A stretch of 63,667 nucleotides of DNA from Chlamydiae bacterium CG10_big_fil_rev_8_21_14_0_10_35_9 (GCA_002773835.1 PFAC01000054.1:1-63667); one strand, 5' to 3'; positions 1,767 through 63,639 are shown, counted from the stretch's first letter. Numbers and translations are program-made. The notes: generated by a model from the sequence alone, not told the origin.

Positions 1767-1770
1767 GCAG

Positions 1771-13470: not shown

Positions 13471-14525
13471 GCTAAATCCACCATTTTAAAGAACTTTTCA
13501 AACAGAAAAGCAGTATCTTGTGGCCCTGGATTGCTTTCCGGGTGAAACTGCACAGCAAAAAACGGATCCTGTTTATGTATAATGCCTTCTACAGATCCAT
13601 CGTTGATATTGCGAAAATACACTGACCAGTCATCAGGCAGTGTAGATTCATCTATTGCCCAGCCGTGATTTTGAGATGTTAAATAAGCTTTTTTATCTAT
13701 TAGATTTAAACACGGTTGATTTTGCCCTCGATGGCCAAAGGTAAGTTTGTAGGTTTGGGCTTGAATAGCAAGCGCCATTAATTGAGATCCCAGACAGATC
13801 CCAAAAGTAGGTTTTTTTAGTTGAAGCACTTTTCTAAGAATAGAAATTGTTTCCTTGCAATAGCTAGGATCTCCCGGACCATTAGAAACAAAAACACCAT
13901 CAAAATGTTCATGGGTAAAGTCGTAGTTATAAGGAACCCGCACTATTTCCCCGTTATATCTATTCAAATGGCGCATGATATTTTCTTTCATGCCACAGTC
14001 GATAGCTATAATTTTTTTCCCCTTGTTGCCAAAAGAAGTGATTTTCTGACAGCTTACTTTCTGCACAAGGTGAGTTTGGTTAGGGTCAAAAAAAGAAGAA
14101 CAAAGAGGTTCATTATGGCAGATAGCAGCAAGTGTAACCCCCTGGCTACGCAGTCGCTTGGTAATAGCCCTAGTATCAACATGAGAAATTAAAGGAACGT
14201 TTTGAGACTTTAACCAGTCTAATAGTGACATCGAGCTTTCAAAATGGGAAGGGTAAAGACAAGGCTCACTAATAACTACACCAGCAGCATGGATTTTAGA
14301 AGACTCCCAATAGTTAGATTGGGGTACCCCATAATTTCCGATTAAAGGATAGGTAAAAACAATAATTTGATCGCAAAAGGAAGGGTCTGTCAAAGTTTCA
14401 ACATAGCCTGACATGCCTGTTGTAAAGACTATTTCCCCAAAGAATTCTTTGTTTTGCCAGGAAGGGCTTAAACCATCAAAAGTTTCACCTGTATTTAGGA
14501 TTAGCTTTGATGGGATCATTTGCAT
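13467..14525 (-). CDS. carA: Carbamoyl-phosphate synthase small (glutaminase) subunit
   Basis: 'GICLGSQL' nucleophile elbow and 'FAVQFHPES'. 4-nt overlap with carB. Confidence 0.95.
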   Translation of the reverse strand: MQMIPSKLILNTGETFDGLSPSWQNKEFFGEIVFTTGMSGYVETLTDPSFCDQIIVFTYPLIGNYGVPQSNYWESSKIHAAGVVISEPCLYPSHFESSMSLLDWLKSQNVPLISHVDTRAITKRLRSQGVTLAAICHNEPLCSSFFDPNQTHLVQKVSCQKITSFGNKGKKIIAIDCGMKENIMRHLNRYNGEIVRVPYNYDFTHEHFDGVFVSNGPGDPSYCKETISILRKVLQLKKPTFGICLGSQLMALAIQAQTYKLTFGHRGQNQPCLNLIDKKAYLTSQNHGWAIDESTLPDDWSVYFRNINDGSVEGIIHKQDPFFAVQFHPESNPGPQDTAFLFEKFFKMVDLA

Positions 14526-21345: not shown

Positions 21346-22262
21346 GTGGTTACACTCAACAAAAGTCAGAACAGTATTATCATAATTGGTGCCGCAGGAC
21401 GCCAAGGAAAAGAATATTTTCATCTTCTTTCAAAGTTATATAAGATCAGTGGTCTTGTAGATACTAATTATAAAGCTCTAAAAGAAGCTTATAATCAAAG
21501 TTCGATTCCCTTATTTCACACTGTAGAAGAAGCTATAGAGCAATGTTCTTTTGCAACAGCTGTTATATGCATTCCTCACTCTTATCATTTTTCCGTTACC
21601 TTACCTCTTATTAACGCTAATAAAACTGTGATCAAAGAAAAACCACTTGCACTAACTCAAGTGGAAGTCAACAGATATAAAGAGCAGGAAAAAAATCATA
21701 TTTTTACAATTGTTCAAAGGCCTTTTCACGAAGCATTTTTCTTTGTACAAAAGAACTTGTACCGTTTAGGAAAGATCTATGATTTTGGCGAAGTAATTTT
21801 TCATTATCTGGGGGTGGCGTCATCATTGATATGGGATATCACATTCTAGATGTGATAATCAATTTTTTCGGACAGCCTGAAGAAATTTCTGGAGCTCTTT
21901 CATATTGCTATGACTATTCTGGGCGCTCTCATTTAGAAGATGCAGCTACTATTACTTGTCGATACTCAAACAACCAGCTACATGGAAGCATACGTCTTAA
22001 TCGATATGCTGAAAGCAAACGAGAATATTTTGAAGTTTTGGGAAGCAATGGGATGTTAACTATGCAAAACGGTTTTATAGAAATAAAGGACCGAAAAGGA
22101 AACCTTTTGGAACAAGTAGAAATTTCTGATCCCTTGAATAAACAAAAAATGTTTGATTTCTATTTTGAGCAATCTAGTTGTCCTTTTTTTTCTGAGCAAC
22201 ACCTCAACCATCACGCAGTGATTGTTGCACTTATTGAACAACTCTACAAAAGGATTCGATAA
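21346..22262 (+). pseudogene. Gfo/Idh/MocA-family sugar oxidoreductase split by a single frameshift in a G5 run
   Basis: Track ORFs 21346-21849 ('IIIIGAAGRQG', 'EKPLALT') and 21831-22262 are the N- and C-halves of one enzyme. Adding one G at 21810-21814 reads '...HYLGGGVIIDMGYHILDVI' and gives one 305-codon ORF (917+1 nt = 306 codons with stop). GTG start. Confidence 0.8.
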
Positions 22263-23491
22263 TGGAGTCAAATAAAATAACATATCCTTGGCCTATCATT
22301 ACTGAGGAAATCGAAGAAGCTGTCGTTCAGCAATTACACACTACGCTTGGAACTTATGATCGATCTGGCATCACAAAAGAATTCGAAGACAAGTTCAAAG
22401 AAATTCATAAAAGCAAGTTTGCTCTTGTTACCTCAAGTGGAACGGCTGCTCTGCATTCGGCATTTTATGCGCTAGACCTTGGGCCGGGTGATGAGGTCAT
22501 TTGTACTGACTACACTTTTTTTGCTACAGCTATGCCTCTTTTCCAATTAGGAGTAGTACCTGTTTTAGCAGACTGCGATCCTAATGGAGGGCTGGCAGCT
22601 ACAGAAATTGATAGACTTATAACCAAAAAGACAAAAGCAGTCGTTCTTACCCATATGTGGGGAAATCCTTGTGAAATGGATGCGATTTTAGATAGATGTC
22701 AAAAATACAACCTTCGATTAGTGGAAGATTGTTCCCATGCGCATGGGGCAACTTATAAAGGACAGCATGTTGGCACTTTTGGCGATATAGGTATTTGGAG
22801 CCTTCAGTCACAAAAAATTATTGCTGCAGGTGAGGCAGGAATATTGGTTACAAATGATCGTACATGTTACGACAAAGCACAGCTGCTAGGGCATTTCAAT
22901 AAGCGAGCCTTAAAAGAAATGGATCCTTCCTCTCCATTATATCAATATGCTATAACAGGTACAGGACTGAAATACCGCCCAGCGGCTCTTGGCCTTGCCA
23001 TTGCCAATAAGCAACTTGATTACTTAGAGCAGTGGATCAATGCCAAAAACCGAAATGCTGAACGAGTACAAAGTATTATTGGAGAAGTTGATGGGATCAA
23101 GTTTTTAAAAGGAGCTGGAGATTTTTCTCGCTCTGCCTACTATGCATTTACCTTTACCATAGACCCTAAAATAGCTCCTTTTTCTAGAGAAGAATTAGTG
23201 AGTTGTATGCACTCTTTTGGATTTAAGGATATAGATATTCCAAACTCTACTTCCTGCTTGCACAGATATCCAATTTTTCAAAAACCTATTTCTCCTGTGT
23301 ACTCCTATCAAAATGACATTTGCATACGGGGAGATTATCCAAATTCAAAGTTTATTTCAGATCATCTTGTAAAAATTTCTGTTCCTATTGATGATCATAA
23401 GGGTTCTAAAGGTCGTTTTTTTGTCGACTCTTTTGAAACAATTTGGAAAAAAGCAAAGGAGAAGTTATGCACCCTTATTCAAAAAAATTAG
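22262..23491 (+). CDS. DegT/DnrJ/EryC1/StrS-family PLP-dependent sugar aminotransferase
   Basis: 'LVTSSGTAALH', 'LVEDCSHAHGA' and 'SLQSQKIIAAGEAGILVTND' (Lys). TAATG overlap with the upstream gene. Confidence 0.85.
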   Translation: MESNKITYPWPIITEEIEEAVVQQLHTTLGTYDRSGITKEFEDKFKEIHKSKFALVTSSGTAALHSAFYALDLGPGDEVICTDYTFFATAMPLFQLGVVPVLADCDPNGGLAATEIDRLITKKTKAVVLTHMWGNPCEMDAILDRCQKYNLRLVEDCSHAHGATYKGQHVGTFGDIGIWSLQSQKIIAAGEAGILVTNDRTCYDKAQLLGHFNKRALKEMDPSSPLYQYAITGTGLKYRPAALGLAIANKQLDYLEQWINAKNRNAERVQSIIGEVDGIKFLKGAGDFSRSAYYAFTFTIDPKIAPFSREELVSCMHSFGFKDIDIPNSTSCLHRYPIFQKPISPVYSYQNDICIRGDYPNSKFISDHLVKISVPIDDHKGSKGRFFVDSFETIWKKAKEKLCTLIQKN

Positions 23492-41896: not shown

Positions 41897-42066
41897 TATT
41901 TTTAGGAACTTCTGTTTTATTAGGATATTGGCACGATTTAGTAAATGCAAGTAAGTCATAGTAAATGTTGATTCATATGATTAGAGACTATTAAGCTGAG
42001 ATGGAAGGCAGCTTTTTAGAAAGCATAAGAGCTACATAAAAATTTGAAGATGATTTTCAGATTAAA

Positions 42067-42411
42067 ATGAATAATAAAGTCAATGAACCTAAAAAAAAGA
42101 TAACTCATCATAGAGCTTTAGCATATCTTTTGCAGAATCGAGTTATTTCTTCTTATGGAAAACTGATAGGTAAAGAATATGAGAATCTTGATTCCATAGA
42201 TGGTAAGTCAGCTTGGTGTGATTTTGCTGCACAAGACGAATGGGGTGAAGTTGTTTTAGCTTATCAAGAAAATTTACCTGTGCAGTTTTTATGGAAAAAT
42301 TTGTTTTATATAAGTCTTTCTGAGATGGAAGAAATGTATAATGTAAAATTGATGAAAAAACATTACCATCATCTTCATCTGAAGATTGTATGTCACCTAC
42401 AATTAAATTAA
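42067..42411 (+). CDS. Hypothetical protein
   Basis: ORF only; overlaps the next ORF by 22 nt. Confidence 0.35.
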   Translation: MNNKVNEPKKKITHHRALAYLLQNRVISSYGKLIGKEYENLDSIDGKSAWCDFAAQDEWGEVVLAYQENLPVQFLWKNLFYISLSEMEEMYNVKLMKKHYHHLHLKIVCHLQLN

Positions 42412-42722
42412 ATACTCAAAATGCAGTTCTGGAAAGCTTAGAAAAAAAACTTAGTAAAAAATATCCCTTTCTTAAAAAAGGATATAAAGAAAAAGGAACG
42501 CTGATAATAGGGATTATAGATCCACTCTTTGGAGGATTTATTAATGATATTGAGATAAAATTTAAAAGTTTTGATTTAAATTCTTTAGAAGAAGAAGCAA
42601 TAAGACTTTCTAAGAAAAGTTGTTTTGATAAAGTCTTGATTGTAGATGGATTGAGGGAGTTTTATTTAAACCCTCAGCAAGATGCTTATCAATTACTTCC
42701 GTTAAAAAATAATAATTATTAA
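42390..42722 (+). CDS. Hypothetical protein
   Basis: ORF only. Confidence 0.35.
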   Translation: MSPTIKLNTQNAVLESLEKKLSKKYPFLKKGYKEKGTLIIGIIDPLFGGFINDIEIKFKSFDLNSLEEEAIRLSKKSCFDKVLIVDGLREFYLNPQQDAYQLLPLKNNNY

Positions 42723-42751
42723 GGAGGTTCCTGAATCAAGTAAAAAGATTT

Positions 42752-43237
42752 CTATCTTTTGTAATTTTGTTTATATTCCTCAGCTAAAAGAACCAAGTCC
42801 ATTTTATCCTGACGATTTGATTTCAAAATTGGATATGTACTATATATAAGTTTTAAAAATTCTGTGTAGTTCATGTGTTTTGTTACAGATAATACATAAT
42901 CAACGATTTTACGATCTTTTTCGGAGAGAAGTTGATTTGCTTTATTTATATCTATCGGCTCTTTTAAAGAGATTTTTTCAGCAGTATTGCCGTAGTTGTT
43001 GATATATTTTTGAATAACAAAATATGAAGATTTATCTAGTTCGTTAATGATTTCTTTTACGTAAGGTCCATAATGATTAAATATCCACTTAATGTCGGTT
43101 ATTTGTTGTTTGTTATTAATTGCCGACTTCCAATCAACAAGGTAGATCAATTTTACTAATCTAGCTTTTGATAAAAGCGTTTTAAGATTGGTAGAACAAT
43201 AGCAAATATAAAGAGATAGATTTATTAATGGTGTCAT
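42752..43237 (-). CDS. Panacea (DUF4065, SocA/GepA-like) domain protein, putative antitoxin
   Basis: 'LSKARLVKLIYLVDWKSAINNKQQITDIKWIFNHYGPYVKEI' fits the Panacea core pattern (KL.KLLY..D......G..IT......W..GPV). Its start codon directly abuts the upstream stop (…ATG TAA ATG…). Confidence 0.65.
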   Translation of the reverse strand: MTPLINLSLYICYCSTNLKTLLSKARLVKLIYLVDWKSAINNKQQITDIKWIFNHYGPYVKEIINELDKSSYFVIQKYINNYGNTAEKISLKEPIDINKANQLLSEKDRKIVDYVLSVTKHMNYTEFLKLIYSTYPILKSNRQDKMDLVLLAEEYKQNYKR

Positions 43238-44074
43238 TTACATACCTAATTTAGTAGTATCTTCAAAAGAAGGGCCTATGTATTCTCTATACATGTCAAG
43301 GTCTTCCCTAAGGTTGATGCCAAGATCATCATTTAAAACTTTTGAGATCTTCCTTTCTTTTAATTGGGTTGGGCTAAGACTTTCAAATACAATAATCATA
43401 TGTTTTTGATGTCCACGTCGAATGGGTAGGGCAAAAATATTTCGGCTTTTCATAGTTAAGTTCGTAACTGAAGCTTTTGTTTTCATTCTTCCCACTTTGG
43501 AAGACATTTGAGCCTCAATCCAACCTTTTTCATCATTATTGGGATCAGGTAAATTTTCTATATAACATTTGTTTTTATGATAAGCCGCTCCAATTACTCC
43601 TTCATTATCAGGATAAAAAGCTCGACCTTTCTTTTTAAATTCTGGATCATCAGAGTGTCTATACAGTAAGATAAATTTATCCTTGGAATGGCAGTAAAGA
43701 GATACTCGCACTAATGGATCGTGAAGAAACTCTAGCCTTTTTAATATAGGTTCAAGTGAATGAGTTATCAAATTTTCGTAGAACTTTAGGGGCTGGTCTT
43801 GATCATCTGCTATTTCAAATAAATTGTTGATGTTGTTTATTAAGGTTTTATTTCGGGTTTTGTCTCGTTTACCTTGAGAAATAGTTCTTGATAATGACTT
43901 TTTATTTTTACAACTAAATATTATACAAATAATAAGTAAAATAACTCCAATTATATTTGCATTTTTAAGTGGGGTAAATAAGAGACTTCCGCTTATGATT
44001 GCTAAGGCTTCAACAAATCCTTCTCCCCATACCAGCTTATTTCTAAGAATACTTTTCAGAATTCGTTCTAACAT
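43238..44074 (-). CDS. 2-TM membrane protein with a C-terminal GAF-like domain, putative toxin/effector partner
   Basis: TM segments 'FVEALAIISGSLLF' and 'IIGVILLIICIIF'. GAF-like core 'VRVSLYCH...DNEGVIGAAYHKNKCYIENLPDP...SRNIFALPIRRGHQKHMIIVFES'. Confidence 0.5.
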   Translation of the reverse strand: MLERILKSILRNKLVWGEGFVEALAIISGSLLFTPLKNANIIGVILLIICIIFSCKNKKSLSRTISQGKRDKTRNKTLINNINNLFEIADDQDQPLKFYENLITHSLEPILKRLEFLHDPLVRVSLYCHSKDKFILLYRHSDDPEFKKKGRAFYPDNEGVIGAAYHKNKCYIENLPDPNNDEKGWIEAQMSSKVGRMKTKASVTNLTMKSRNIFALPIRRGHQKHMIIVFESLSPTQLKERKISKVLNDDLGINLREDLDMYREYIGPSFEDTTKLGM

Positions 44075-44294
44075 TTTTAAAATTAAAAATTAAATTTAAA
44101 GGAGCTTAGCATTAGTCGGAAATTAACTCTATCTTTATACCGGAATATTGCCGGAATGGATAATTACCAAAAGTTAATCTTGATCAATTTAAGTGACCAA
44201 TATTTCCTAGAAAAAATCTACTTTCCTCTATACACTTTATCAAGCAAAGGTGATTAAAGGTCACTTTGAGTAATTGTCAGTAAGGCTTTTTCAA

Positions 44295-49847: not shown

Positions 49848-50234
49848 ATGGGGCAGTTTGCTTTTGGAGAGTTAGAGCTTTCCATTTTAAAAGCAGTGCG
49901 AGAATTAGGCAGAGCAACTGTTCATGAAGTTCTTAAAAAATTAGCAAGTAAGCGCAGCTATACTACAATTATGACAGTAATGAGCCGTCTTGCTGAAAAG
50001 GGAGAATTAGCAAGAGAAAAGCAAGGTAAGCAGTATGTCTACTGGATTACCCCTCATAAGGAACGTGCATCAAAAGGTCTTCTAAAGCGCATCCAAGACA
50101 GACTCTTTGGTGGTAAGGGTGCAGCAATGGTGAGTTATTTGATTGAAGTAAGTGAAGAGATGTCTGATCAAGAGTTATGTGAAATTGAGAGTATGATTCA
50201 ACAGAAAAGACAGCAGAGTAAAAAAAATGGATAA
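49848..50234 (+). CDS. BlaI/MecI/CopY-family winged-helix repressor
   Basis: 'ELSILKAVRELGRATVHEVLKKL...YTTIMTVMSRLAEKG'. 128 aa, with AGGAG upstream. Confidence 0.85.
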   Translation: MGQFAFGELELSILKAVRELGRATVHEVLKKLASKRSYTTIMTVMSRLAEKGELAREKQGKQYVYWITPHKERASKGLLKRIQDRLFGGKGAAMVSYLIEVSEEMSDQELCEIESMIQQKRQQSKKNG

Positions 50235-51282
50235 ATTTGCGTTATTTATTTTCAACGTGTTTTTAAATAGTCTTTTAGCATTCTTTACAACTGTAATTTT
50301 AATAGAAGGGGTTATTTTTCTATTTAGAATTCGTCAAGGAAGATGGTGCTCTTTTTTACGAATCTTGCCTATTTTAAAACTTCCATTTGATGTGTTTTAT
50401 TATAATTTTTCTAGATGGTCCTATGCACAAGGTATCAATCCATTAATGTGCGAAGAAGGATCTCGAATATTATCAATAACTGTAGGGTATTTCGAGAGAT
50501 CGCCGGTAATTACTTCAGGTATTCAATTTACAGCTCCTGGAAGCCTGACTTTTAGTGTTGCCGATGCTATAAGCTATTTTTTCAACCCAAAGTTTTTGAT
50601 TGCATTTTCTTTTCTGTTGGTTGGATGCTCTTTAACTTTTCTTTTGAGGAAGATTTTTGTTTATAATCAATTCATTGCATCTCTAAATGAGCTACAAGAA
50701 GATAAGACTTACAAACAAAGAAGAATTCGCAACGCAAAAATTAACTGCCTTTTTAGAAAAAAAAGGGTTTCAGTAATAAGAGTTTCCAATATTAATGGAT
50801 CGCCATTTGTAGCAGGGATTGCCTCAAAAGTCATTTACATGCCGACTTCTCTTGAGCAAAAGCTTACTCAAAAAGAATATGAGGCTGTTTTAGCGCATGA
50901 AGTAGAGCATATTAGAAGAAAAGACACATTTATTCGGTTCATTTTGGATGTGATTGGGTCGGTATTTTGGTGGGTTCCCACTAAATGGCTACAAAAAAGG
51001 ATCGAAGAAGGACAAGAAGTGGCGTGTGATTTGAAGGCAAAAAGATATGGAGTTTTTTCCGTCGATCTTGCTTCAGCTATTTGTAAATCTGCAAAGGAGT
51101 CCCTGCATTTTTCTAATTATAAAATGGCGCAGTATCTTACAAAACATATGATGTATAAAAGAACGAATATTCTACTGCAGTCTTCCACAAAACGGTTTCA
51201 AGCTCTTTATTTTGTTTTGTCCTGCTTTGCTGTTTTCTTTTCCTTTTTACTAATTTTTCTAGGGAGATTTTGGATTTTTTAG
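50227..51282 (+). CDS. BlaR1/MecR1-like M56 membrane metalloprotease without a penicillin-binding sensor domain
   Basis: Multi-TM protein with the zinc motif 'LAHEVEHIRRKD'. 8-nt overlap with the repressor gene. Ends after a C-terminal TM. Confidence 0.8.
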   Translation: MDKFALFIFNVFLNSLLAFFTTVILIEGVIFLFRIRQGRWCSFLRILPILKLPFDVFYYNFSRWSYAQGINPLMCEEGSRILSITVGYFERSPVITSGIQFTAPGSLTFSVADAISYFFNPKFLIAFSFLLVGCSLTFLLRKIFVYNQFIASLNELQEDKTYKQRRIRNAKINCLFRKKRVSVIRVSNINGSPFVAGIASKVIYMPTSLEQKLTQKEYEAVLAHEVEHIRRKDTFIRFILDVIGSVFWWVPTKWLQKRIEEGQEVACDLKAKRYGVFSVDLASAICKSAKESLHFSNYKMAQYLTKHMMYKRTNILLQSSTKRFQALYFVLSCFAVFFSFLLIFLGRFWIF

Positions 51283-54865: not shown

Positions 54866-57097
54866 CTATTGTTTCGAAGAGTCCATTTTAGAAGCTATTT
54901 CCTGGGATAGTTCACCTTTGTAATATACATCATCCATTATTGCAAGAATTTGTTTGGCTTCATCAAGGTGATCTTTATTAACCATTCTGTTTCCGATAAG
55001 AGCTAAATTAAAGTTTTTAACAGTGCTCCTTAGCCTAAAACCGTCTCCCTCTTCAGGAAGATCGCCTGCCAAGCTAATAGCTTGATCAAGATATTTTGAT
55101 GAACCAAAACGAATGTATCCTTCAGCAAGAGCAATAACTAAAAATTTCAGTGCTTCAGTTTTTAGAATTCCTTCACTTCTTTGGCTTTCTTCTATTGCAA
55201 TGCCTATAAAATCTTCAAATACTTCTTCCTCTATCCTGCCAATATTTCTAACTAGCATTGCAGATAGATTCACAGATTTTGAATAATCTACACACCCAGT
55301 AAGAACCTCTAAAGCTGTTCGAGGCTCATTACGGCTTTCATAAGCACGTGCTACAGCCAAAAGTGAGTCATTTTTGATTCTATTTCCGTCTTTGAAAACA
55401 GGTAGTTCCTCTGCCAGTTGTAAAGCTTCTTCAATATGGTCTTTTTCTATAAGTTGATAGCAAATTTGTTCATTTACAAGACTTGTTGAAAGAGGTGTAC
55501 AAGCAACTTTTTTGGCTAGGTTTATAGCTTTACCTGAGACTAGTCGATTAGTAAGTCTGTCGATAAAAAACTCATGTAGTTCTTTAGGGGCATTAACAAG
55601 GCCTTTTGCAATTTTTAAAAGATTTCCAATGCCCTGTTCTGTTTGTATATTGTCACATAAATATTCATGTAAACAGCCCCGGACCCCACTAGATGGTTTA
55701 AATTCTAATGGTATGTTAAAAATTTGTAGAGCTTCATCAATTCTTCCACTCTCCAAATGAGTAATAAAAATCAGATCATAGGCAAGGCGTTTTAACATTT
55801 GATTCATGACTTTTTCAGAAAGACTGTAGATCACTTGAAGGTCTTTAGTTTCCTCAAGTTGTTTTTTTAGGTAATCCCAAAAACTACTTCGTAATGTGTA
55901 ATCATTAGAATTTAATAAGTCTGTGTTGATAATTCCTAATGCTTTTTCTATGTCATCTCTATTTAGCAACTCTTGCACAATATGGTATAAACTAGAGTTT
56001 CTTTTGTCTTCGGTAGAAATAGTGTGAGCTAAATTTATAGCTTCGTCTACTTCCCCTTTTTCAACCAATATTTCAATGAGATCTCGAACAATTCTAGTAG
56101 TTCTATCAGGGATGTTTCCAGCAGCGTTTAAAGCTTTTTGGATAGTGAGGTTTAAGTTTACACCTTCTTCAATATCTTTTTTGAATGTTACAAGAACAAT
56201 TTTACTCAGAAGACAGCTTCTAGAGCTTTGATCAGAAATTTTTTCAACCTGCTGCAAAGCCTCATCAGTGCGCCTTTTGTTGAGTAACTCTTCAATAATG
56301 TTTGTTTGCATATATTTTCTAAGATTTTCAGAAGGGATCTGATCACAAAAGTCTGCGTAGTCAAGAGTAATTTTTGAGTCTTCTAAGGTACAAATGATTC
56401 GTGAAAATTCATGGTTTCTTTGATTTTCATGTTTAATTTGGTGGGCAGCTTGAAAAGCTAGTTTAAAATTTTGGGTTTTTACTGCGTCTCCTACAATTTG
56501 CGCAAAAATATTATCCAAAGCATATGGAATCTCCTCAGGTATCTTTTCAACTACTTCATAAGCCTTATCTTGAACGGTCACTGTAATAAGAAGGCCATCT
56601 GATCCTAAAAAAGTAGTGTGGATGGTAGAATTTTCTATATTGTTTAATAAATCTTCTTTATTAGCTTCTACAGCAGCCTCCATTTCACATTTATTATTAA
56701 GCAGCACACCTTCAACATATTTTAGCATAGATTTTTTCCACTCTTCGACTTTTATATTATGAGCCGCATGAAAAGCTAGATCAACATTTCGGGTTTTTAG
56801 TGCGTCTCCTGCAATTTGCGCAAAAATATTATTCAAAAGGGACTGAATATTACTGTCTTTTTGTGCTTCCCTTGTATATGTCTTGTCTTGATAGCCAGAG
56901 ACTGTGACGCTAACGCTCTGATCTGTAATATTAATTGTAAATAGATTGCCTATACCTCTTGTTGCACTTGCCATATTAACCTCATTTTTTTTTGAAAAGT
57001 GGAAGAAGTTTATAGAAGCTGTAATATGATTAACAATAAAAACCATTAAAAAATTTATGCATGGCTTTTCCCCCCCCCCCCCATTTATTGGCGCCAT
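54866..57097 (-). CDS. Large alpha-helical repeat protein with a duplicated N-terminal module
   Basis: 743-aa ORF. The more likely start is ATG 56974 (MASATRG…) after GAGG plus 5 nt. The C-terminal two-thirds hold recurring units of about 35-45 aa with '[IVL][DE][EKQ]A[LI]' turns. No known domain recognised. Confidence 0.6.
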   Translation of the reverse strand: MAPINGGGGEKPCINFLMVFIVNHITASINFFHFSKKNEVNMASATRGIGNLFTINITDQSVSVTVSGYQDKTYTREAQKDSNIQSLLNNIFAQIAGDALKTRNVDLAFHAAHNIKVEEWKKSMLKYVEGVLLNNKCEMEAAVEANKEDLLNNIENSTIHTTFLGSDGLLITVTVQDKAYEVVEKIPEEIPYALDNIFAQIVGDAVKTQNFKLAFQAAHQIKHENQRNHEFSRIICTLEDSKITLDYADFCDQIPSENLRKYMQTNIIEELLNKRRTDEALQQVEKISDQSSRSCLLSKIVLVTFKKDIEEGVNLNLTIQKALNAAGNIPDRTTRIVRDLIEILVEKGEVDEAINLAHTISTEDKRNSSLYHIVQELLNRDDIEKALGIINTDLLNSNDYTLRSSFWDYLKKQLEETKDLQVIYSLSEKVMNQMLKRLAYDLIFITHLESGRIDEALQIFNIPLEFKPSSGVRGCLHEYLCDNIQTEQGIGNLLKIAKGLVNAPKELHEFFIDRLTNRLVSGKAINLAKKVACTPLSTSLVNEQICYQLIEKDHIEEALQLAEELPVFKDGNRIKNDSLLAVARAYESRNEPRTALEVLTGCVDYSKSVNLSAMLVRNIGRIEEEVFEDFIGIAIEESQRSEGILKTEALKFLVIALAEGYIRFGSSKYLDQAISLAGDLPEEGDGFRLRSTVKNFNLALIGNRMVNKDHLDEAKQILAIMDDVYYKGELSQEIASKMDSSKQ
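56440..56843. repeat. Intragenic tandem duplication with a 318-bp period
   Basis: 56473-56520 and 56791-56838 are nearly identical. They encode 'NIFAQIVGDAVKTQN.KLAFQAAHQIK' and 'NIFAQIAGDALKTRN.DLAFHAAHNIK'. Confidence 0.8.
57070..57082. repeat. Homopolymeric C13 tract (G13 on the coding strand)
   Basis: Thirteen consecutive C in a markedly AT-rich window. It lies either in codons 5-9 of the long ORF (…NGGGGE…) or about 100 nt upstream of ATG 56974. Confidence 0.95.
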
Positions 57098-57350: not shown

Positions 57351-57845
57351 TTAAGAAAGACAAGGCATAAAGCCTAATGTAAAGTTTTCTGTATCTAGAA
57401 GTGAATTGGGCCATGCATTGATAGTATAGGGGAGTTGAATGCGGGCTAAGGTTAGGTGAGGACGATAATAGTCACCATAATCATTTATTATGGGAAGCTT
57501 CTTTTTTTGAATGAAATCAACGGCTTGTTGATAAAGGTTTAATAGCGGAGTATCTCTTGCAATGGAAAGCTCTGCCCAATAATAACCTTCATGCTCAGCG
57601 ATTCCTTTAACAAAACTGAAGGCAGCGAAACGGATCATAAGAGAAGGTTGTGATAGTTTTTTAAACTCTTCCCAAAGGCTTGCCGCTAGACTTTGCTCGC
57701 ACTCAAATTGACATAGAGTGATATGAGGAGTGCTTTCTTTAGATAAAAGATGGTCACTATTTTGAGAAGAAAAGAATTCTTGCGCTGCTTGAATATATTT
57801 TTCCGCACTTTCTGGAGTAGGGATGAGAGCTAGCATGTAAGGCAT
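57351..57845 (-). CDS. 2H-phosphoesterase superfamily protein (LigT/cyclic phosphodiesterase-like)
   Basis: Two H-x-T-x motifs in the typical context, 'TPHITLCQF' and 'RPHLTLARI'. 164 aa. Starts 16 nt downstream of the GGDEF gene. Confidence 0.7.
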   Translation of the reverse strand: MPYMLALIPTPESAEKYIQAAQEFFSSQNSDHLLSKESTPHITLCQFECEQSLAASLWEEFKKLSQPSLMIRFAAFSFVKGIAEHEGYYWAELSIARDTPLLNLYQQAVDFIQKKKLPIINDYGDYYRPHLTLARIQLPYTINAWPNSLLDTENFTLGFMPCLS

Positions 57846-57861
57846 TTAATTTTTTGACCTT

Positions 57862-58755
57862 TTACATTTCCTGGTTCCAGAATTGCGTGCAGTTTCGCCC
57901 GGAAGATTTGGCTGCCATAAGGGCTTTGTCTGCTCTTTCTATTGAATCCTCAACAGGAGCATAAAGGTCTAGAGGGGAGATCCCAAATGATACAGTGATG
58001 CGAATAGGAGTAGGTTCTTTAATAATATCATTAGCAGCTATTTTGTTGCGTAGCTCTTCAATCTTTTCAAAAGCTTTGTTTGCTTCAATATTATTTAAAG
58101 AAATAAGAAACTCTTCTCCCCCATAGCGAAAAATTCTATCATGAGGTTGAAGATTTTCTGCTATTAGATGGGCAACAACAGATAAGATATTATCTCCTAT
58201 TTTATGACCATGTTGGTCGTTAATTGCTTTAAAATGGTCAATGTCCATCATAACTAAAAAACAGCGTTGATTTTCCCTTTTAGCACTTTCTTGTTGTTCT
58301 CGTAAAAGGGTGAGCATGTTGACTCGGTTAATGGTTTTAGTCAACGGATCACGGGTATAGAGTAAATTTTCCAGCTCTCGTATCAAAGTGGTTATTTCTA
58401 AACTAAGCCTTTCTAAGGAATTGGAAAAATTGTCATATTCGGGAGGGGATACTACTCTTCCTGAATTTACTGCCTCCAGTAAAGATTTAGCCAACTGGTG
58501 CATTCTTTCATGTTCTTCTCCTAGTGCTTTAAAACCGGGGTGTTTACTTAAATGGTTTAGATTTTCTGAATAATACCATTGACCGAAACGGCACTGTCTA
58601 TGAGCATCATCAGCAATATCGCGTTGATCGGGGGGGAGGTGGCATATAAGAGTTCGAATAAGTGAGTTAAACCAAGCCTGATGGTTATAAATTGCTTGAT
58701 CTAATCTTGTGATAATTTTTTGTAAGTCTTCGTGATTCATTTCAGTAAAAGGCAT
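57862..58755 (-). CDS. Diguanylate cyclase with an N-terminal chemoreceptor zinc-binding (CZB) domain, DgcZ-like
   Basis: CZB ligands 'AIYNHQAWF', 'QCRFGQWY' and 'EEHERMH'. GGDEF domain 'MDIDHFKAINDQHGHKIGD' and 'RYGGEEF'. The I-site position reads QPHD, not RxxD. Confidence 0.85.
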   Translation of the reverse strand: MPFTEMNHEDLQKIITRLDQAIYNHQAWFNSLIRTLICHLPPDQRDIADDAHRQCRFGQWYYSENLNHLSKHPGFKALGEEHERMHQLAKSLLEAVNSGRVVSPPEYDNFSNSLERLSLEITTLIRELENLLYTRDPLTKTINRVNMLTLLREQQESAKRENQRCFLVMMDIDHFKAINDQHGHKIGDNILSVVAHLIAENLQPHDRIFRYGGEEFLISLNNIEANKAFEKIEELRNKIAANDIIKEPTPIRITVSFGISPLDLYAPVEDSIERADKALMAAKSSGRNCTQFWNQEM

Positions 58756-58761
58756 AAATGG

Positions 58762-60162
58762 TTACTTTTTTTCTTGGGATACTCTTTCCCCCCTTTTATA
58801 CACATAGCGATTTTTCGTAAAGAAGCGAAAAAATCCTACAATACGCCACCAAACAGTAATTGGTCGGTAAGTAAAATTGTCTAAAAGAGAAAAGAAAAAC
58901 ATTTTAGCAATCATTCTAATGGATTGGTATTTTCTTAAGAAAATCTCTTGCATAATCATGGAGGTAATCGTTAGAAACAGACTAGTTCCCCACGCAATCA
59001 GGATAAAGTACCAAAAAAAGGCAAGGTTTAACACTCCAAAAAAATAACAGAAGGTGACGTAAAGATAGCCAAATCCTTCAATTAAAGGAGCTAGTGCCTC
59101 TCCAAAAAAAAGAAAAGGAAAATGGATAAACCCTACTTTTCCATATTTAGGGTTAAACATCATCTTTCTTCTTCTCCAGCAAACTTCAACAATAGAGCAG
59201 TGCCATCGTTTGCGCTGTTTGGCTAGGGAGGAAAATGTTTGTGGTACATCGGTCCAAACAATTGAGTCAAAGACATAATCGATACGGTATGGCTTTTTTT
59301 TGTCGCGCATGTCTTTATGAAGGGCAATAGTCATATCAAGATCGCCTGCTAGTACTTTTTGAAATCCTCCGATGTCAACAACTGCTTGTTTGTTAAAAAG
59401 GCCAAACCCTCCAGAGATAATAGGTGATCCACCTAGCTGGTTCCATCCAAGCCTTGCAAAGAAAAAAGTTTTTAAATATTCAATAACTTGCATCGATCCC
59501 CAAAAAGAAGAAGGTAAACTAACTTTTGTCACCTTTCCATTTTCTAGCGTGCACCCGTTTAAAATAGTAAGCATCCCACCCATAGCGCATATATTTTTTT
59601 CTGTAAAAAGATGTTGAGAAAATCGGTGTACCGCATCAGGATCAATGATTGAATCTGCATCAATATTTATAAAAAAAGGGGTCATGCATGCGTTAATGCC
59701 TGCGTTGATAGAGTCTTCTCTTCCTCCATTTTTTTTGTGGATCACCGTTAGATTAGGATGTGATTGAGAACGGTAATAATGTTTTATGGGCTCAGTTTTT
59801 AAAATGGGGCGAAAAATAGGAGGGAAAGAATCTAATGTATATTTATTCATTAATAGTTGCATTGTCTGGTCGGTAGAATCATCATCTACAACGATTACCT
59901 TGATGTGAGGAAAATCAACATTTAAAGCGGCAGCAACAGAGGACAGTAAAACTTCTGATTCATTAAAAGTAGGAATAATGATTGTAATAGGAGGAACAAC
60001 ATCAAGCTTTAAGAGCTGATAAGAATCTTGCGCTTTAACTTCTTGTGATCTTCGAACAAGGTTTGGATTGGTGAAAATAAGAAGAAGTATATAAAAGCCA
60101 TTCAGCAATAAAAAATACCCAAGTATGAATAGATCTATTCCTAAAAGGATATTTTCATTCAT
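58762..60162 (-). CDS. Processive family 2 glycosyltransferase (PgaC/IcaA/NodC-like synthase)
   Basis: N- and C-terminal TM helices, 'ITIIIPTFNES', 'VVDDDSTD', 'NIDADSI' and 'QRKRWHCS' (Q-x-x-R-W). Confidence 0.8.
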   Translation of the reverse strand: MNENILLGIDLFILGYFLLLNGFYILLLIFTNPNLVRRSQEVKAQDSYQLLKLDVVPPITIIIPTFNESEVLLSSVAAALNVDFPHIKVIVVDDDSTDQTMQLLMNKYTLDSFPPIFRPILKTEPIKHYYRSQSHPNLTVIHKKNGGREDSINAGINACMTPFFINIDADSIIDPDAVHRFSQHLFTEKNICAMGGMLTILNGCTLENGKVTKVSLPSSFWGSMQVIEYLKTFFFARLGWNQLGGSPIISGGFGLFNKQAVVDIGGFQKVLAGDLDMTIALHKDMRDKKKPYRIDYVFDSIVWTDVPQTFSSLAKQRKRWHCSIVEVCWRRRKMMFNPKYGKVGFIHFPFLFFGEALAPLIEGFGYLYVTFCYFFGVLNLAFFWYFILIAWGTSLFLTITSMIMQEIFLRKYQSIRMIAKMFFFSLLDNFTYRPITVWWRIVGFFRFFTKNRYVYKRGERVSQEKK

Positions 60163-61246
60163 AAAGATCTACCTTTAAAGCAAATTGAGCCGCTTCGTAA
60201 GCATAACGGTCCTCTTTAGGGTTTACCTGATTTAATGTTTTAATTCCTTTATCTCCTATTCGTTTTAATGCCAAAGCGCTATTCATTCTTACCCACCACG
60301 TTTTATCCTTTAGCAAGTTCAACAGTTCAGAAACAGCCTCTTCAGCTTTTAGGTAGCCTAAGCTGCGAGCTGCTATAGCTTTTACTTCCCATTCAGGAGC
60401 TTTTAAAAGAGGAAGAAGAAGAGAAATACTTCTGGGCTCAAAAAAATGACCTAGAGCGCGAATAGCTGCGATGCGTAAATTCAAGTGAGCCGCATAAAGA
60501 TCTTTTTCTGCTAAATCAACAATGTGAGAATTCATCTTATGAGCTAATACTTCTAGACAGCTGACTCTTTTATAAGGATCAGTCTCTTTTTCAAACCTTT
60601 TTTCTATATGATCAAAGGATTTTGGGTTTCCCCCTAGTAAAGCTTCTTGAAATGGATGTCGTAAAAATCTATTACAGCTCATAGCATCAATAACAGCATT
60701 AGCACTTTTGTAAGTTCCCAGCTTTGCTGCACAAGCTGCAGCTGAGTACTTAATAATGGGGACTGGATCTTGTAATAAGTAAAGAACTTCAGGTTCATTA
60801 TTGGTATCAGGAAAATGAAGATAGCATCCGGCTGCCTGTACTCTTTTAGTCCATTTTTTAGAATAGGTCAGTTTTTTAGCTTGAGGAAAAAGAAGATTTT
60901 GAGAAATCGATTTTTTTAATGTTTCCCAATGGCTGTCTTTTACTTCTTCATTAACTTTTAAGATTAGGGGAACAAGAAAAGGAATATTACATTTACAGCC
61001 GGCAAATAAAGGTATAGAAAATTCTTTCTTTTGTTGAATTGCTTTGATTAAATAACTTTTGAAAGCTGCAAGTTTTTTTTCTTTTCTTTTCCCCGAAAAC
61101 GTAAGAATAGGTTTTAACAAGAAAGAAAACGCAATATGAAGTCCAATAAAAATGAATTGTGAAATTAAAATCCATTTGACTAAATATAGATAGGATAAAA
61201 ATTGATGTCGTAACATAAATGGATTACTTAGGCATACATTATTCAT
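60155..61246 (-). CDS. Membrane-anchored HEAT (PBS-lyase-type) repeat protein
   Basis: N-terminal TM 'WILISQFIFIGLHIAFSFLL'. Repeats include 'LRIAAIRALGHF', 'EWEVKAIAARSLGYL' and 'TWWVRMNSALALKRIGD'. 8-nt overlap with the synthase gene. Confidence 0.7.
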   Translation of the reverse strand: MNNVCLSNPFMLRHQFLSYLYLVKWILISQFIFIGLHIAFSFLLKPILTFSGKRKEKKLAAFKSYLIKAIQQKKEFSIPLFAGCKCNIPFLVPLILKVNEEVKDSHWETLKKSISQNLLFPQAKKLTYSKKWTKRVQAAGCYLHFPDTNNEPEVLYLLQDPVPIIKYSAAACAAKLGTYKSANAVIDAMSCNRFLRHPFQEALLGGNPKSFDHIEKRFEKETDPYKRVSCLEVLAHKMNSHIVDLAEKDLYAAHLNLRIAAIRALGHFFEPRSISLLLPLLKAPEWEVKAIAARSLGYLKAEEAVSELLNLLKDKTWWVRMNSALALKRIGDKGIKTLNQVNPKEDRYAYEAAQFALKVDLYE

Positions 61247-61258
61247 TTAAATAATTTA

Positions 61259-63145
61259 ATGACTTATAATTGGCAAGTTATGACAAAGATTAAGGCCTCG
61301 CTTTTCTTCCTATTGGTTATTGGGGGACTTTCAGCTCTTTCAGAACCTATTTTAGCTCCTCCTTCGGAAGTGCAAGAAGAAGTTTCTTTTCCTAATCCTC
61401 AGACAGCATATGAATGGTATGAATGGGGATTGATTCAAATTCGGGAGAAAAAATGGGAGGAAGCTAAACAAAGCCTTGAAGAGGCTCTTTTTTTAGATCC
61501 TGAACTTATTGTTGCCAAAGTGCAATTGGCCTTCCTTGAGTTATGGCAAAATAACTTATCTGCCTCCTATCAATCATTTTTGGAGGTGTTTGAAGTTTCT
61601 CCTTGTGAGCCTCACGCATTAGAGGGGGTTCGAGAAATTGGCTTACAATGGGCGCAAGAACAAACTAAACAGCAAGAAGAAGTTGTAATATATGAAAAAT
61701 TGAATAGCTGCGAGCCTCATAATCCCGACACTCTTTTTTACCTTGGGCGGTCTCTTGCCAGAACGGGAAACTGGAATCAAGCAAAAGGGGTCTTGCAAGA
61801 ATGTCTTAGATTAGCCCCTCAATATAGCGATGCAGAAATTCAGCTTGCTTACATTTATTTATGGGAAGGGAAACCAGAAGAAGCAGAAGCTCTTTTTATC
61901 AAATATCCTAATAATCCAGATGCGAAACTGGCTCTTGCGCGCATTGCAAGGCAGCGTAATGAACATGATAAAGCAAAAAAACACTTAGAAGAGATTCTTT
62001 CCGAGAATCCTGAACATCCTGAGGCAAGAAAAGAATATGCAAATGTTCTTTATTTAAGTGGAAATTACTTTGAAGCGGAGAATGAGTTCTCATGGCTTAT
62101 TGATAATGGAGAAGATCCCAATGTTTTATGGCTTCCTCTTTTTGATATTGGCTCCCATACCCGTTATGCACTGTGGACAGAAACGCTTTATACAGACGCT
62201 AAAGAAAATGACCCAGATCTTAGCGCTCCCGTGGTGAAGGATTATTATTTTTACAACGCGGTTCACGTATTAGTCCCTCTTACAAATATGTGGCGATTAG
62301 ACATCAAGCAGATTTATTATCACCAAAGAGAAAATGATATTTATCCACCTGTAGGCGTTAATTACTCTGCGTATTATTCTGGAGGTCAGATCACTTCTAA
62401 TTGCTATTTTTGCAAAAATTGGCAGTGGGATCTTTTTATAAGGATCTTTCATGCTTGGGGAAGCCAAAATCAAATCGCAAACTTTCCTTTTGAATCAAAA
62501 AATCGTTATGAGCCTGGAACAGGACTTCGCTATAGCACAGACAGACAATTGTTTTTTATTGGAGCCCATAGTGAATCTTTTATCATAAAAGATTTTTCCA
62601 GCAATATTTCCAAACTGCTTGGGACAATTAATTTAGTTGCCGCTTATACCTACCGTTTCAATTGGATATTAAAGCCAGAGGTTCAAGCATCCGTAGAACA
62701 GGTATTTATTAAAGACAACTTAAGAAATTGGAAAAACACTAGTAACGGCTCAATTCGATTTGGGCTGCCTTACATAGCAGACTATGTCAAAGCGATCTAT
62801 TTTTTTGAGTATGGGCACTTTGATAAGCTTTCTCAAAATTACTATTCTTTTAGAGAGCAGGTTAGAAATGCTATTGGTGGATATGTTCATGTTCCTATTA
62901 CCTCTTATATTTCTTGGAACACTACCTATTACCATAGGTGGCAGTTGACCCGTGACTTATTCCAACCGATCGGTAACCAAGTGTTTGTAGCTCAAAGACA
63001 ACTGTTGGTTGCTAACTGGGTTACTTCAGAAATTTTAGTCCGCTATAAAGATAAAATGCGCCTAGCTTTGGAAGGACATTATTTCCGAGATAACCTTCCT
63101 TATCGCGACTGGGGCATTACAGGTTCTTTCCTTTGGCAGTTTTGA
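61259..63145 (+). CDS. Outer-membrane TPR plus beta-barrel protein (PgaA/BcsC/NfrA-like exporter)
   Basis: Signal peptide 'ASLFFLLVIGGLSALS'. N-terminal TPR repeats of about 250 aa. C-half with alternating aromatic beta-strand pattern ending '...GITGSFLWQF' (terminal Phe). Confidence 0.65.
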   Translation: MTYNWQVMTKIKASLFFLLVIGGLSALSEPILAPPSEVQEEVSFPNPQTAYEWYEWGLIQIREKKWEEAKQSLEEALFLDPELIVAKVQLAFLELWQNNLSASYQSFLEVFEVSPCEPHALEGVREIGLQWAQEQTKQQEEVVIYEKLNSCEPHNPDTLFYLGRSLARTGNWNQAKGVLQECLRLAPQYSDAEIQLAYIYLWEGKPEEAEALFIKYPNNPDAKLALARIARQRNEHDKAKKHLEEILSENPEHPEARKEYANVLYLSGNYFEAENEFSWLIDNGEDPNVLWLPLFDIGSHTRYALWTETLYTDAKENDPDLSAPVVKDYYFYNAVHVLVPLTNMWRLDIKQIYYHQRENDIYPPVGVNYSAYYSGGQITSNCYFCKNWQWDLFIRIFHAWGSQNQIANFPFESKNRYEPGTGLRYSTDRQLFFIGAHSESFIIKDFSSNISKLLGTINLVAAYTYRFNWILKPEVQASVEQVFIKDNLRNWKNTSNGSIRFGLPYIADYVKAIYFFEYGHFDKLSQNYYSFREQVRNAIGGYVHVPITSYISWNTTYYHRWQLTRDLFQPIGNQVFVAQRQLLVANWVTSEILVRYKDKMRLALEGHYFRDNLPYRDWGITGSFLWQF

Positions 63146-63639
63146 GCATAGATATTTAAAATCTGTTCTTCAATTTCATGATTTGCCAGCTTTTCAGAGA
63201 AATAGGGCTTATTAGAAAAAAGCGTCCCCGTCTGAATATGTTTACCTGTCCTTTTAACAATGGCTTTAAAAAGTTTAAAAAAAGGATATAGCTTGTTAGA
63301 CACTGTTAAAAAAGTGTCTTGAGGGACTGGATCAGTAAATTGAATACGATAAAAAAGCTTTAACGGGTTATCTGGATAAGATTCAACATGAAAGAAGGGG
63401 GCGCCGTTTAGTGTTACACTTTGTAAAATATCTAATGCTTGTTGTGTCGATTGAGCATTGGGGAAAAAAAGATGGGCGTCATGTGTCATGTGCGCTTCAA
63501 TGGCAACTTTTTTAATGCCTATTAACTGCAAAAATTTTTTTTGGTTAATTTGTCGATACAAAACCCAAGGTTTTTCCTCCATAGTGTTTTTTTGTGACAA
63601 GGCATTGGTAACTAGGAAAAGATCGTCAGGTTGGAGCAT
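63100..63639 (-). CDS. Hypothetical protein, possibly the C-terminal part of an alkaline-phosphatase-superfamily enzyme; N-terminus may run off the window
   Basis: The frame stays open toward the window edge. 'KRTGKHIQTGTLFSNKP' resembles the COG3379-type 'G.H...G' terminal motif. Weak call. Confidence 0.35.
   Translation of the reverse strand: MLQPDDLFLVTNALSQKNTMEEKPWVLYRQINQKKFLQLIGIKKVAIEAHMTHDAHLFFPNAQSTQQALDILQSVTLNGAPFFHVESYPDNPLKLFYRIQFTDPVPQDTFLTVSNKLYPFFKLFKAIVKRTGKHIQTGTLFSNKPYFSEKLANHEIEEQILNIYAQNCQRKEPVMPQSR

Follow-up and report, generated by a model that had tools for sequence, protein, structure and literature searches.

The 63,667-nucleotide contig of Chlamydiae bacterium CG10_big_fil_rev_8_21_14_0_10_35_9 (GCA_002773835.1 PFAC01000054.1:1-63667), hereafter called the window, carries at positions 57351-63145 a compact locus with the predicted parts of a polysaccharide secretion machine. 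These are a family 2 glycosyltransferase (GT2) of the synthase type, a HEAT-repeat partner, a diguanylate cyclase combining a CZB zinc-binding domain with a GGDEF domain, a 2H phosphoesterase and an outer-membrane exporter. An earlier note, made from the sequence alone, had described the locus as a self-contained, Pga-like secretion module gated by zinc and cyclic di-GMP (c-di-GMP). In outline that description stands: the predicted module serves polysaccharide secretion, includes a cyclase of the DgcZ type and belongs to a chlamydia-like genome. Its Pga identity and its self-containment do not stand, and its gating by c-di-GMP was put too firmly. The genes of the locus, the first five taken from the six-frame list of open reading frames (ORFs), are the following.

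57351-57845, minus strand: 2H phosphoesterase, last gene of the operon
57862-58755, minus strand: CZB-GGDEF cyclase
58762-60162, minus strand: GT2 synthase, 466 amino acids (aa)
60155-61246, minus strand: HEAT-repeat protein
61259-63145, plus strand: TPR plus beta-barrel exporter, 628 aa
63100-63667, minus strand: 3' part of the gene for a conserved ~430-aa protein, which runs towards the exporter gene and off the end of the window

The four packed minus-strand genes face the divergent TPR gene, with ORFs, strands and junctions exactly as previously claimed. The stop of the HEAT gene overlaps the start of the GT2 gene by 8 nt, the GT2 and cyclase genes are separated by 6 nt and the cyclase and 2H genes by 16 nt, and an AT-rich spacer of 253 nt lies beyond the 2H gene. 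As annotated, only 12 nt separate the start codons of the divergent HEAT and TPR genes. The true start of the TPR protein is probably M8 at 61280 (MTKIKASLFFLL..., a typical signal peptide), and that of the HEAT protein is possibly M11; these starts would leave ~63 nt between the two genes, and the orthologous gap in the related locus L073 measures ~70 nt. The GC content is ~0.35 and uniform over the window, the operon having the same value as the rest. A scan for sigma-70 promoters and terminators returned no more sites than shuffled sequences, or fewer. Pfam and NCBIfam agree with every domain call in the five genes. The window scans covered ORFs of at least 110 aa, leaving aside ~12 short nested ORFs, EF-G, S7/S12 and the ORFs below 110 aa.

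The GT2 protein carries the D,D,D,QxxRW set of processive enzymes described before (D94/D95, D168-A-D170, D274 and Q316-RKRW), and these residues are invariant in an alignment of 28 family members (30-73% identity). One hydrophobic segment is found at the N-terminus (residues 11-29) and three to four near the C-terminus (343-399). The family profile matches the hyaluronan synthase of a Chlorella virus almost end to end (11-358), as well as the QxxRW/transmembrane core of BcsA (242-381) and of chitin synthase (284-378). The protein is therefore predicted to be a membrane-embedded processive synthase; a clustering with non-processive transferases had been named as the outcome that would speak against this, and the profile instead matches these three processive families. 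The closest NCBIfam model is PgaC_IcaA (TIGR03937; E = 6e-30), followed by NodC. The PgaC_IcaA score of 104.6 bits lies far below the cutoff of 422.3, and the alignment with E. coli PgaC has 23% identity and 21% gaps, which speaks against a PgaC orthologue and leaves the label "PgaC-like" valid only at the level of superfamily and architecture. The CelA model gives 36.7 bits against a cutoff of 699. The protein has no PilZ domain, and the window ORFs that were scanned include nothing resembling BcsB.

The protein encoded just upstream is a HEAT-repeat protein (HEAT_2, 81.6 bits in Pfam), whose PDB matches are HEAT proteins of the PBS-lyase type and alphaRep proteins. It has a single N-terminal membrane anchor at about residues 20-50, with the HEAT domain C-terminal to it. 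Nine of the 27 residues that follow the anchor (50-76) are lysine or arginine and, by the positive-inside rule, the HEAT domain would face the cytoplasm. With a hidden Markov model built from such partners, HEAT is found immediately before the GT2 gene in 73 of 79 loci from several phyla; the six exceptions are due to the ends of contigs or to high-GC genomes in which the ORFs are hard to call. Across phyla, an N-terminal transmembrane anchor was seen in 22 of the 23 partners examined. This supports a role of the HEAT protein as a true co-subunit of the synthase, as had been proposed, and no similarity between it and PgaD was detected.

GT2 relatives within the chlamydial clade share 39-95% identity, and those of Bacillota, Bacteroidota, Acidobacteriota, Gemmatimonadota, Acidimicrobiales and others 30-36%. 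HEAT-GT2 apparently represents a widespread two-gene core with swappable regulators that has remained uncharacterised; a search of the available literature found no description of a HEAT protein paired with a GT2 synthase, or of any member of the family.

The divergent gene encodes an exporter with a signal peptide, matches to many Pfam TPR families and an aromatic C-terminal end (...FLWQF). AlphaFold2, run with an alignment of 33 sequences, models the protein with a mean pLDDT of 92.6 and a pTM of 0.80, showing ~15 TPR-type helices (residues 50-301) followed by 16 beta-strands (304-627), in line with the TPR plus beta-barrel exporter proposed earlier. The single-sequence prediction was uninformative for residues 286-628 (pLDDT ~23). 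Foldseek against the PDB returned E. coli BcsC first (9b8a, E = 1e-14, 565 columns), then 9b8h and 6tzk; these alignments span 565-593 columns at a sequence identity of 12-13%. No Pfam family covers the barrel domain, and the exporter has no BcsC membership in Pfam or NCBIfam. A search with the C-terminal domain found 32 relatives, all of them TPR-fused; a source is named for a few only, and these belong to Chlamydiota/Parachlamydiales.

The term "PgaA-like" likewise holds for the architecture only. The PgaA model TIGR03939 scores 19 bits against a cutoff of 366.65, and the profile comparison with E. coli PgaA (hhalign) aligns 123 TPR columns at a probability of 56%, with no sequence relation in the barrel. 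Membership of the barrel among YaiO-type proteins, compared through one TPR-YaiO protein of Chryseobacterium, or among the large TPR proteins of a second type of chlamydial locus (type B) was rejected on the same grounds, as the profile-profile alignments cover the TPR part only. By sequence, the barrel thus forms a separate family, predicted to have a BcsC-like fold. This TPR-barrel family adjoins HEAT-GT2 in every chlamydial context examined.

The cyclase, of ~296 aa, consists of a CZB domain (50 bits in Pfam, residues 25-92) and a GGDEF domain (134 bits, residues 135-288). It scores 260.8 bits against the DgcZ equivalog NF007380 of NCBIfam, barely over the cutoff of 256. Its best PDB match is full-length YdeH (4h54; residues 10-295 against 7-289), and BLASTP aligns it with E. 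coli K-12 DgcZ collinearly over the full length (27% identity, 295 aa, E = 4e-32), which agrees with the DgcZ-type assignment made before. Residues H25, C55, H82 and H86 align with H22, C52, H79 and H83 of DgcZ, which form its 3His/1Cys zinc site, the last two within H82-ERM-H86. The catalytic motifs DIDHFKAINDxxGHxxGD (DIDHFKAINDQHGHKIGD) and GGEEF212 are conserved, and none of the zinc ligands or catalytic residues varies among 12 orthologues, of which six are from chlamydiae and six from Proteobacteria. The protein thus possesses the motifs of a competent GGDEF domain: GG[D/E]EF, the Mg2+-binding Asp residues and the guanine-binding Asn/Asp.

A motif check agreed with the earlier description of four CZB ligands, an intact GGEEF and no RxxD inhibitory site (I-site). 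The I-site position reads QPHD in the window and in L001, and HRNE in L163/164. Since RxxD is kept in L073 (RPYD), L161 (RPQD) and the proteobacterial relatives, the missing I-site is a derived loss; the aligned position of E. coli DgcZ is RDYE. The nearest relatives outside the chlamydiae are proteobacterial, at 38-49% identity (Methylophaga 49%, Sterolibacterium 48%, Dyella 45%), which suggests that the cyclase was acquired horizontally from Proteobacteria. This event would be old, and the divergence of the cyclase among chlamydial lineages (62-86% identity) parallels that of the synthase (58-95%).

In DgcZ, the CZB site is a zinc-dependent allosteric brake and also a Cys-Zn redox switch that reacts with hypochlorous acid, and the text of the survey of CZB domains does not mention chlamydiae (PMC8262984). 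The input of the cyclase is therefore better described as zinc/oxidant than as zinc alone; of the "zinc-sensing" proposed at first, the 3His/1Cys site is present and the restriction to zinc is too narrow. By analogy with DgcZ, the window cyclase may be under zinc/redox control.

Both hallmarks of synthase-dependent secretion, a processive inner-membrane GT2 with a transmembrane region and a TPR plus barrel exporter, are encoded at the locus. It is probable, though well short of certain, that the locus encodes a distinct and apparently uncharacterised type of synthase-dependent exopolysaccharide secretion, built from a HEAT-GT2 core, a BcsC-like exporter and a DgcZ-type cyclase. The GT2 and its obligate HEAT partner would polymerise a nucleotide sugar and thread the chain across the inner membrane, and the BcsC-like protein would carry the polymer through the periplasm along its TPR region and through the outer membrane by way of the 16-stranded barrel. 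A DgcZ-type cyclase, probably of proteobacterial origin, would have been added to the operon of this core. Zinc bound to the 3His/1Cys CZB site would hold the cyclase off, and its loss, upon zinc limitation or oxidation of Cys55, would release c-di-GMP synthesis. No product feedback on the cyclase is expected, because the I-site arginine has been lost. The locally formed c-di-GMP may then activate HEAT-GT2 directly, by analogy with PgaCD, which likewise lacks PilZ.

A bolder version of the proposed secretion system appears rather unlikely as a whole. In it, one zinc/redox cyclase and one synthase would form a local c-di-GMP circuit in which the HEAT protein, alone or together with the GT2, is a new receptor for c-di-GMP (and for phosphorylated REC in other phyla), and the 2H protein would provide turnover in a genome devoid of EAL and HD-GYP proteins.

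Several observations weigh against the proposed system or against parts of it. All the evidence is computational, and most of the relatives come from metagenome-assembled contigs. The cyclase is the only c-di-GMP-related protein among the scanned ORFs of the window: over ~64 kb, these contain no EAL, HD-GYP, PilZ, MshEN or GIL domain and no degenerate GGDEF or EAL domain. The Rfam search of the window, which returned one tRNA only, found no c-di-GMP riboswitch. The HEAT protein of L163/164 lacks the transmembrane anchor. In addition, the window holds no deacetylase or other polymer-specific enzyme, so that any statement on the polymer leans on sister loci and on the weak PgaC match. Finally, the core also occurs with no GGDEF gene nearby, in the type-B chlamydial loci and in Bacteroidota, and elsewhere it is accompanied by phosphorelays or Ser/Thr kinases.

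These other contexts are diverse. Type-B loci (L075-L078, L162) contain HEAT, GT2 and two large TPR proteins without a cyclase; their further genes are those for UDP-sugar dehydrogenase and epimerase, or for a CE4 deacetylase. In the chlamydial locus L160, a phosphorelay (PAS kinase-REC-Hpt-REC) lies upstream of HEAT-GT2, and L159 contains Ser/Thr kinases and a CE4 deacetylase. The Chryseobacterium locus L046 combines a hybrid kinase, HEAT, a GT2 fusion of the sulfatase type and a TPR-YaiO barrel. A response to c-di-GMP cannot be a general property of a core that occurs GGDEF-free or with other regulators, and c-di-GMP is neither its sole nor its ancestral control, as many loci are free of GGDEF genes. 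In Chryseobacterium (L046 9824-13261 and 13258-14493), the GT2 is fused to a domain of the sulfatase/alkaline-phosphatase type in a protein of 1145 aa and is paired with the TPR-YaiO barrel and the hybrid kinase, which suggests that the polymer of this bacterium is phospho-modified.

These contexts make it conceivable, at rather low probability, that the cyclase is a mere neighbour. HEAT-GT2 would then be controlled otherwise, constitutively or by protein partners, and c-di-GMP would act on an unlinked target, or the cyclase would act by contact. Neither HEAT nor GT2 has a receptor domain, and none (PilZ, MshEN, GIL or a PelD-type I-site) is recognisable in any of the five module proteins. What is conserved in the HEAT protein from phylum to phyla is confined to generic positions of the repeat. 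GGDEF-free lineages and those with REC phosphorelays or kinases fit such a neighbour as well. The original statement that the module is "c-di-GMP-gated" was thus too strong, as the window shows no receptor, phosphodiesterase or riboswitch; gating by c-di-GMP is a reasonable inference that no domain supports, and an interface site of the PgaCD kind on the module proteins is possible.

Arguing for a functional link are the 6-nt spacing between the GT2 and cyclase genes and the conservation of the gene order. HEAT, GT2 and CZB-GGDEF follow each other in seven chlamydial lineages (the window, L001, L073/74, L161, L163/64, L248 and L249) at GT2 identities of 58-95%, so that the gene set is not due to chance. 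In total, 13 of the 79 loci have a GGDEF gene no more than 3 kb away from the GT2 gene, as do L161, L163 and L164, which were added later. Some of these are Bacillota, such as the Salipaludibacillus locus L008 (7255-15007), in which the genes for a REC-GGDEF protein, HEAT, GT2, a stand-alone REC and a PAS hybrid histidine kinase overlap or abut. There, REC-GGDEF sits immediately upstream of HEAT-GT2, a GGDEF link independent of the chlamydial one. The strongest argument so far for an action of c-di-GMP on the core is that two different GGDEF architectures have joined it in two phyla. Moreover, with a single c-di-GMP gene in 64 kb and a phylum described as free of such enzymes, few other targets are plausible.

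In L163 (2237-4306) and L164 (2119-4212), a heavy-metal P-type ATPase resembling CopA, with an HMBD domain, is encoded in between, after the gene for the barrel and before the operon that starts with HEAT. Its highest score is that for CopA, a copper exporter; as a link to zinc it was therefore set aside, and it is not used as evidence here.

A genuine Pga system secreting poly-N-acetylglucosamine (PNAG) is a somewhat less likely explanation still. It would require the GT2 to be a divergent PgaC making beta-1,6-GlcNAc, the barrel to be PgaA, DgcZ to act as the activator and the deacetylase to be encoded elsewhere in the genome. The first-ranking PgaC_IcaA match of the synthase, the DgcZ equivalog score of the cyclase and the TPR plus 16-strand architecture of the exporter, which equals that of PgaA, all fit this explanation. 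So do the CE4 deacetylases of the sister chlamydial loci L159 and L162, whose top-scoring family is PgaB (83.5 and 102.5 bits), with IcaB second. However, the synthase and exporter scores fall far short of the PgaC and PgaA cutoffs, PgaC itself aligns poorly and with large gaps, only the TPR part of PgaA can be aligned, and the nearest fold of the exporter is BcsC. The obligate HEAT partner, unrelated to PgaD, is foreign to Pga systems. The scanned window ORFs contain no PgaB- or PgaD-like gene and no match to Polysacc_deac_1, as the earlier note had observed for PgaB and PgaD.

For the distinct HEAT-GT2 system preferred here, the clues to the polymer are indirect. The nearest curated families of the synthase are PgaC/IcaA and NodC, the CE4 enzymes of sister loci resemble PgaB, and type-B loci have the genes for UDP-sugar dehydrogenase and epimerase. 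On this basis, the polymer has roughly even chances of being a beta-linked N-acetylhexosamine chain similar to PNAG. In the window lineage it may be left fully acetylated.

The host of the module is chlamydial. EF-G of the same window shares 74-79% identity with metagenome-assembled genomes (MAGs) of Chlamydiae, Parachlamydiales and Simkaniaceae and at most 62% with other phyla, which places the contig in Chlamydiota, as assumed from the start. The same region is found, syntenic and with 86-95% protein identity (95% for the GT2), in L001, an independently assembled Chlamydiota MAG, and sister contigs with the module carry a CT021-family gene or a TLC nucleotide transporter. Taken together, these features assign the module to environmental chlamydial lineages, not to Chlamydiaceae. 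A mis-binned or chimeric contig, with the module stemming from a proteobacterial or other contaminant, would fit the proteobacterial relatives of the cyclase and the MAG origin of most relatives, and is effectively refuted by the EF-G identities, the uniform GC content, the CT021-family and TLC genes on contigs with the same operon and the 95%-identical syntenic copy.

The 2H protein contains the motifs HITL41 and HLTL130, whose histidines (H41 and H130) are invariant in all orthologues; these two HxT motifs place it by sequence in the 2H superfamily. The Pfam and NCBIfam matches are marginal, with 23.4 bits against a cutoff of 23.3 for LigT_PEase of Pfam and a score below the cutoff for 2_5_RNA_ligase2 (24.1 against 27). 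Of the seven chlamydial lineages with the cyclase at the locus, five have the 2H gene after it, with a 4-nt overlap in L073. An exhaustive profile search defined a wider family of 254 representatives (E <= 1e-10), mostly stand-alone. Rare fusions to P-loop kinases of the Zeta/AAA_33 type or to HAD phosphatases suggest a generic chemistry for the family, acting on nucleotide or RNA cyclic phosphates or in end-healing. Nothing significant was found in the PDB and, with fusions pointing to generic chemistry, the 2H protein was rejected as a recognisable c-di-GMP phosphodiesterase. Its co-transfer with the cyclase was rejected as well, as no 2H, HEAT or GT2 gene adjoins the DgcZ-like gene in the proteobacterial loci compared.

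At the other end of the locus, the ORF at 63100-63639 ("orf179") is the C-terminal part of the gene for the conserved, cytoplasmic ~430-aa protein. Phmmer matches were obtained in L001 (311-1618) and L073 (3704-5020), with orthologues in L159 and L160, and the gene stands beside the module in six chlamydial lineages, including L073, L159, L160, L248 and L249. The alignment shows many invariant His, Asp and Trp residues; the searches gave only a marginal Pfam match (Phosphodiest) and none in the PDB or NCBIfam. It is a probable accessory component. This gene and the module are usually accompanied by a small GT2 that is similar to synthases of polyprenyl-phosphate sugars (PpgS, AglJ, ArnC). The module thus extends beyond 57351-63145 and is not self-contained there, contrary to what had been proposed.

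Other genes of the window were also annotated. Just downstream of the operon, 54866-57097 encodes a 743-aa protein with weak TPR-like matches only; it is 60% identical to its L001 orthologue, compared with 86-95% in the flanking genes, and appears to be fast-evolving. A repressor and sensor-protease pair resembling BlaI/BlaR1 (Penicillinase_R, Peptidase_M56) lies at 49848-51282, and a similar pair occurs near the module in L161. At 21346-22262, two overlapping ORFs together make up a GFO/IDH/MocA oxidoreductase, the Rossmann half at 21346-21849 and the C-terminal half at 21831-22262, followed by a DegT-family aminotransferase (22262-23491). Oxidoreductase and aminotransferase resemble an amino-sugar pair of the GnnA/GnnB type, in which there may be a frameshift, a pseudogene or a sequencing error.

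The stretch with the lowest GC content (0.296) spans 42001-44100, where an ORF with a SocA/Panacea antitoxin domain (42752-43237) abuts a 278-aa ORF of no assigned family (43238-44074); the two may form a toxin-antitoxin pair or a mobile island. A protein of the ERG4/ERG24 sterol-reductase family (433 bits) is encoded at 7682-9019, a eukaryote-like gene in a bacterial contig. A near-complete de novo pyrimidine pathway, located at 975-6017 and 10297-14525, comprises OMP decarboxylase, a phosphoribosyltransferase, DHODH, an amidohydrolase, PyrI, PyrB, CarA and CarB. It is consistent with an environmental chlamydia of large genome, not with a reduced pathogen.

The presence of an intact DgcZ-type cyclase in at least seven environmental chlamydial lineages contradicts the statement of a 2023 review that c-di-GMP enzymes are absent from Chlamydiales (PMC10745434), as well as the older view, from the 2005 census by Galperin, that histidine kinases and Ser/Thr/Tyr kinases were all that chlamydiae had retained (PMC1183210). 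The earlier presumption that pathogenic Chlamydiaceae are not described as users of c-di-GMP agrees with the 2023 review, and our search of the available literature found no description of c-di-GMP in Chlamydiota. Some chlamydiae may thus secrete an exopolysaccharide through a synthase-dependent machine spanning two membranes, which bears on host attachment, aggregation and survival outside cells. A zinc/oxidant trigger, if true, would suit life in a compartment derived from the phagosome. Beyond the chlamydiae, HEAT-GT2 represents a widespread and apparently unstudied synthase family with modular regulation, present in Bacillota, Bacteroidota, Acidobacteriota and others. Since a single cyclase is the only c-di-GMP gene seen in the chlamydial version, the signal receptor would be easiest to identify there.

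Among known systems, PgaABCD with DgcZ of E. coli is similar in several respects. Both have a processive GT2 without PilZ, translationally coupled to a small or medium-sized membrane partner, an exporter made of TPR and a 16-stranded barrel, and a CZB-GGDEF cyclase with the same 3His/1Cys site; PgaB/IcaB-like deacetylases are found here in sister chlamydial loci. In contrast, the partner in the window is a HEAT protein of ~360 aa encoded upstream of the synthase, whereas PgaD has 137 aa and is encoded downstream. The window cyclase belongs to the operon and has QPHD at the I-site, whereas E. coli dgcZ is unlinked. The synthase is only distantly related to PgaC, the barrel is unrelated in sequence to that of PgaA, and PgaB has no counterpart in the window.

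The exporter shares with BcsC (9b8a, 9b8h, 6tzk) the order of an N-terminal TPR solenoid and a 16-stranded barrel, but BcsC has ~1150 aa and the TPR region of the 628-aa window protein is much shorter. The synthase also differs from that of the Bcs system, lacking the PilZ domain of BcsA and a BcsB in the window. In concept, the module resembles two further systems. In Pel, an inner-membrane scaffold of helical repeats, PelE, stands next to the glycosyltransferase, which is a GT4 enzyme; the repeats are TPR, and PelD is the receptor. In the NfrA/NfrB/DgcJ system of E. coli, the dedicated cyclase DgcJ feeds NfrB locally, and NfrB has a C-terminal MshEN domain that binds c-di-GMP. A repeat scaffold beside a glycosyltransferase and a cyclase dedicated to one synthase are thus both known; unlike these systems, the window module has no recognisable receptor domain, and its helical repeats are HEAT instead of TPR.

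The same core is found in the HEAT-GT2 modules of Bacillota, Bacteroidota, Acidobacteriota and others, such as those of Salipaludibacillus (L008) and Chryseobacterium (L046), where a GT2 30-36% identical to that of the window is preceded by an overlapping gene for a HEAT protein with a transmembrane anchor. These modules differ in what surrounds the core: REC-GGDEF, REC and a hybrid kinase in Bacillota, and a hybrid kinase, the sulfatase-type fusion of the GT2 and a TPR-YaiO protein in Chryseobacterium.

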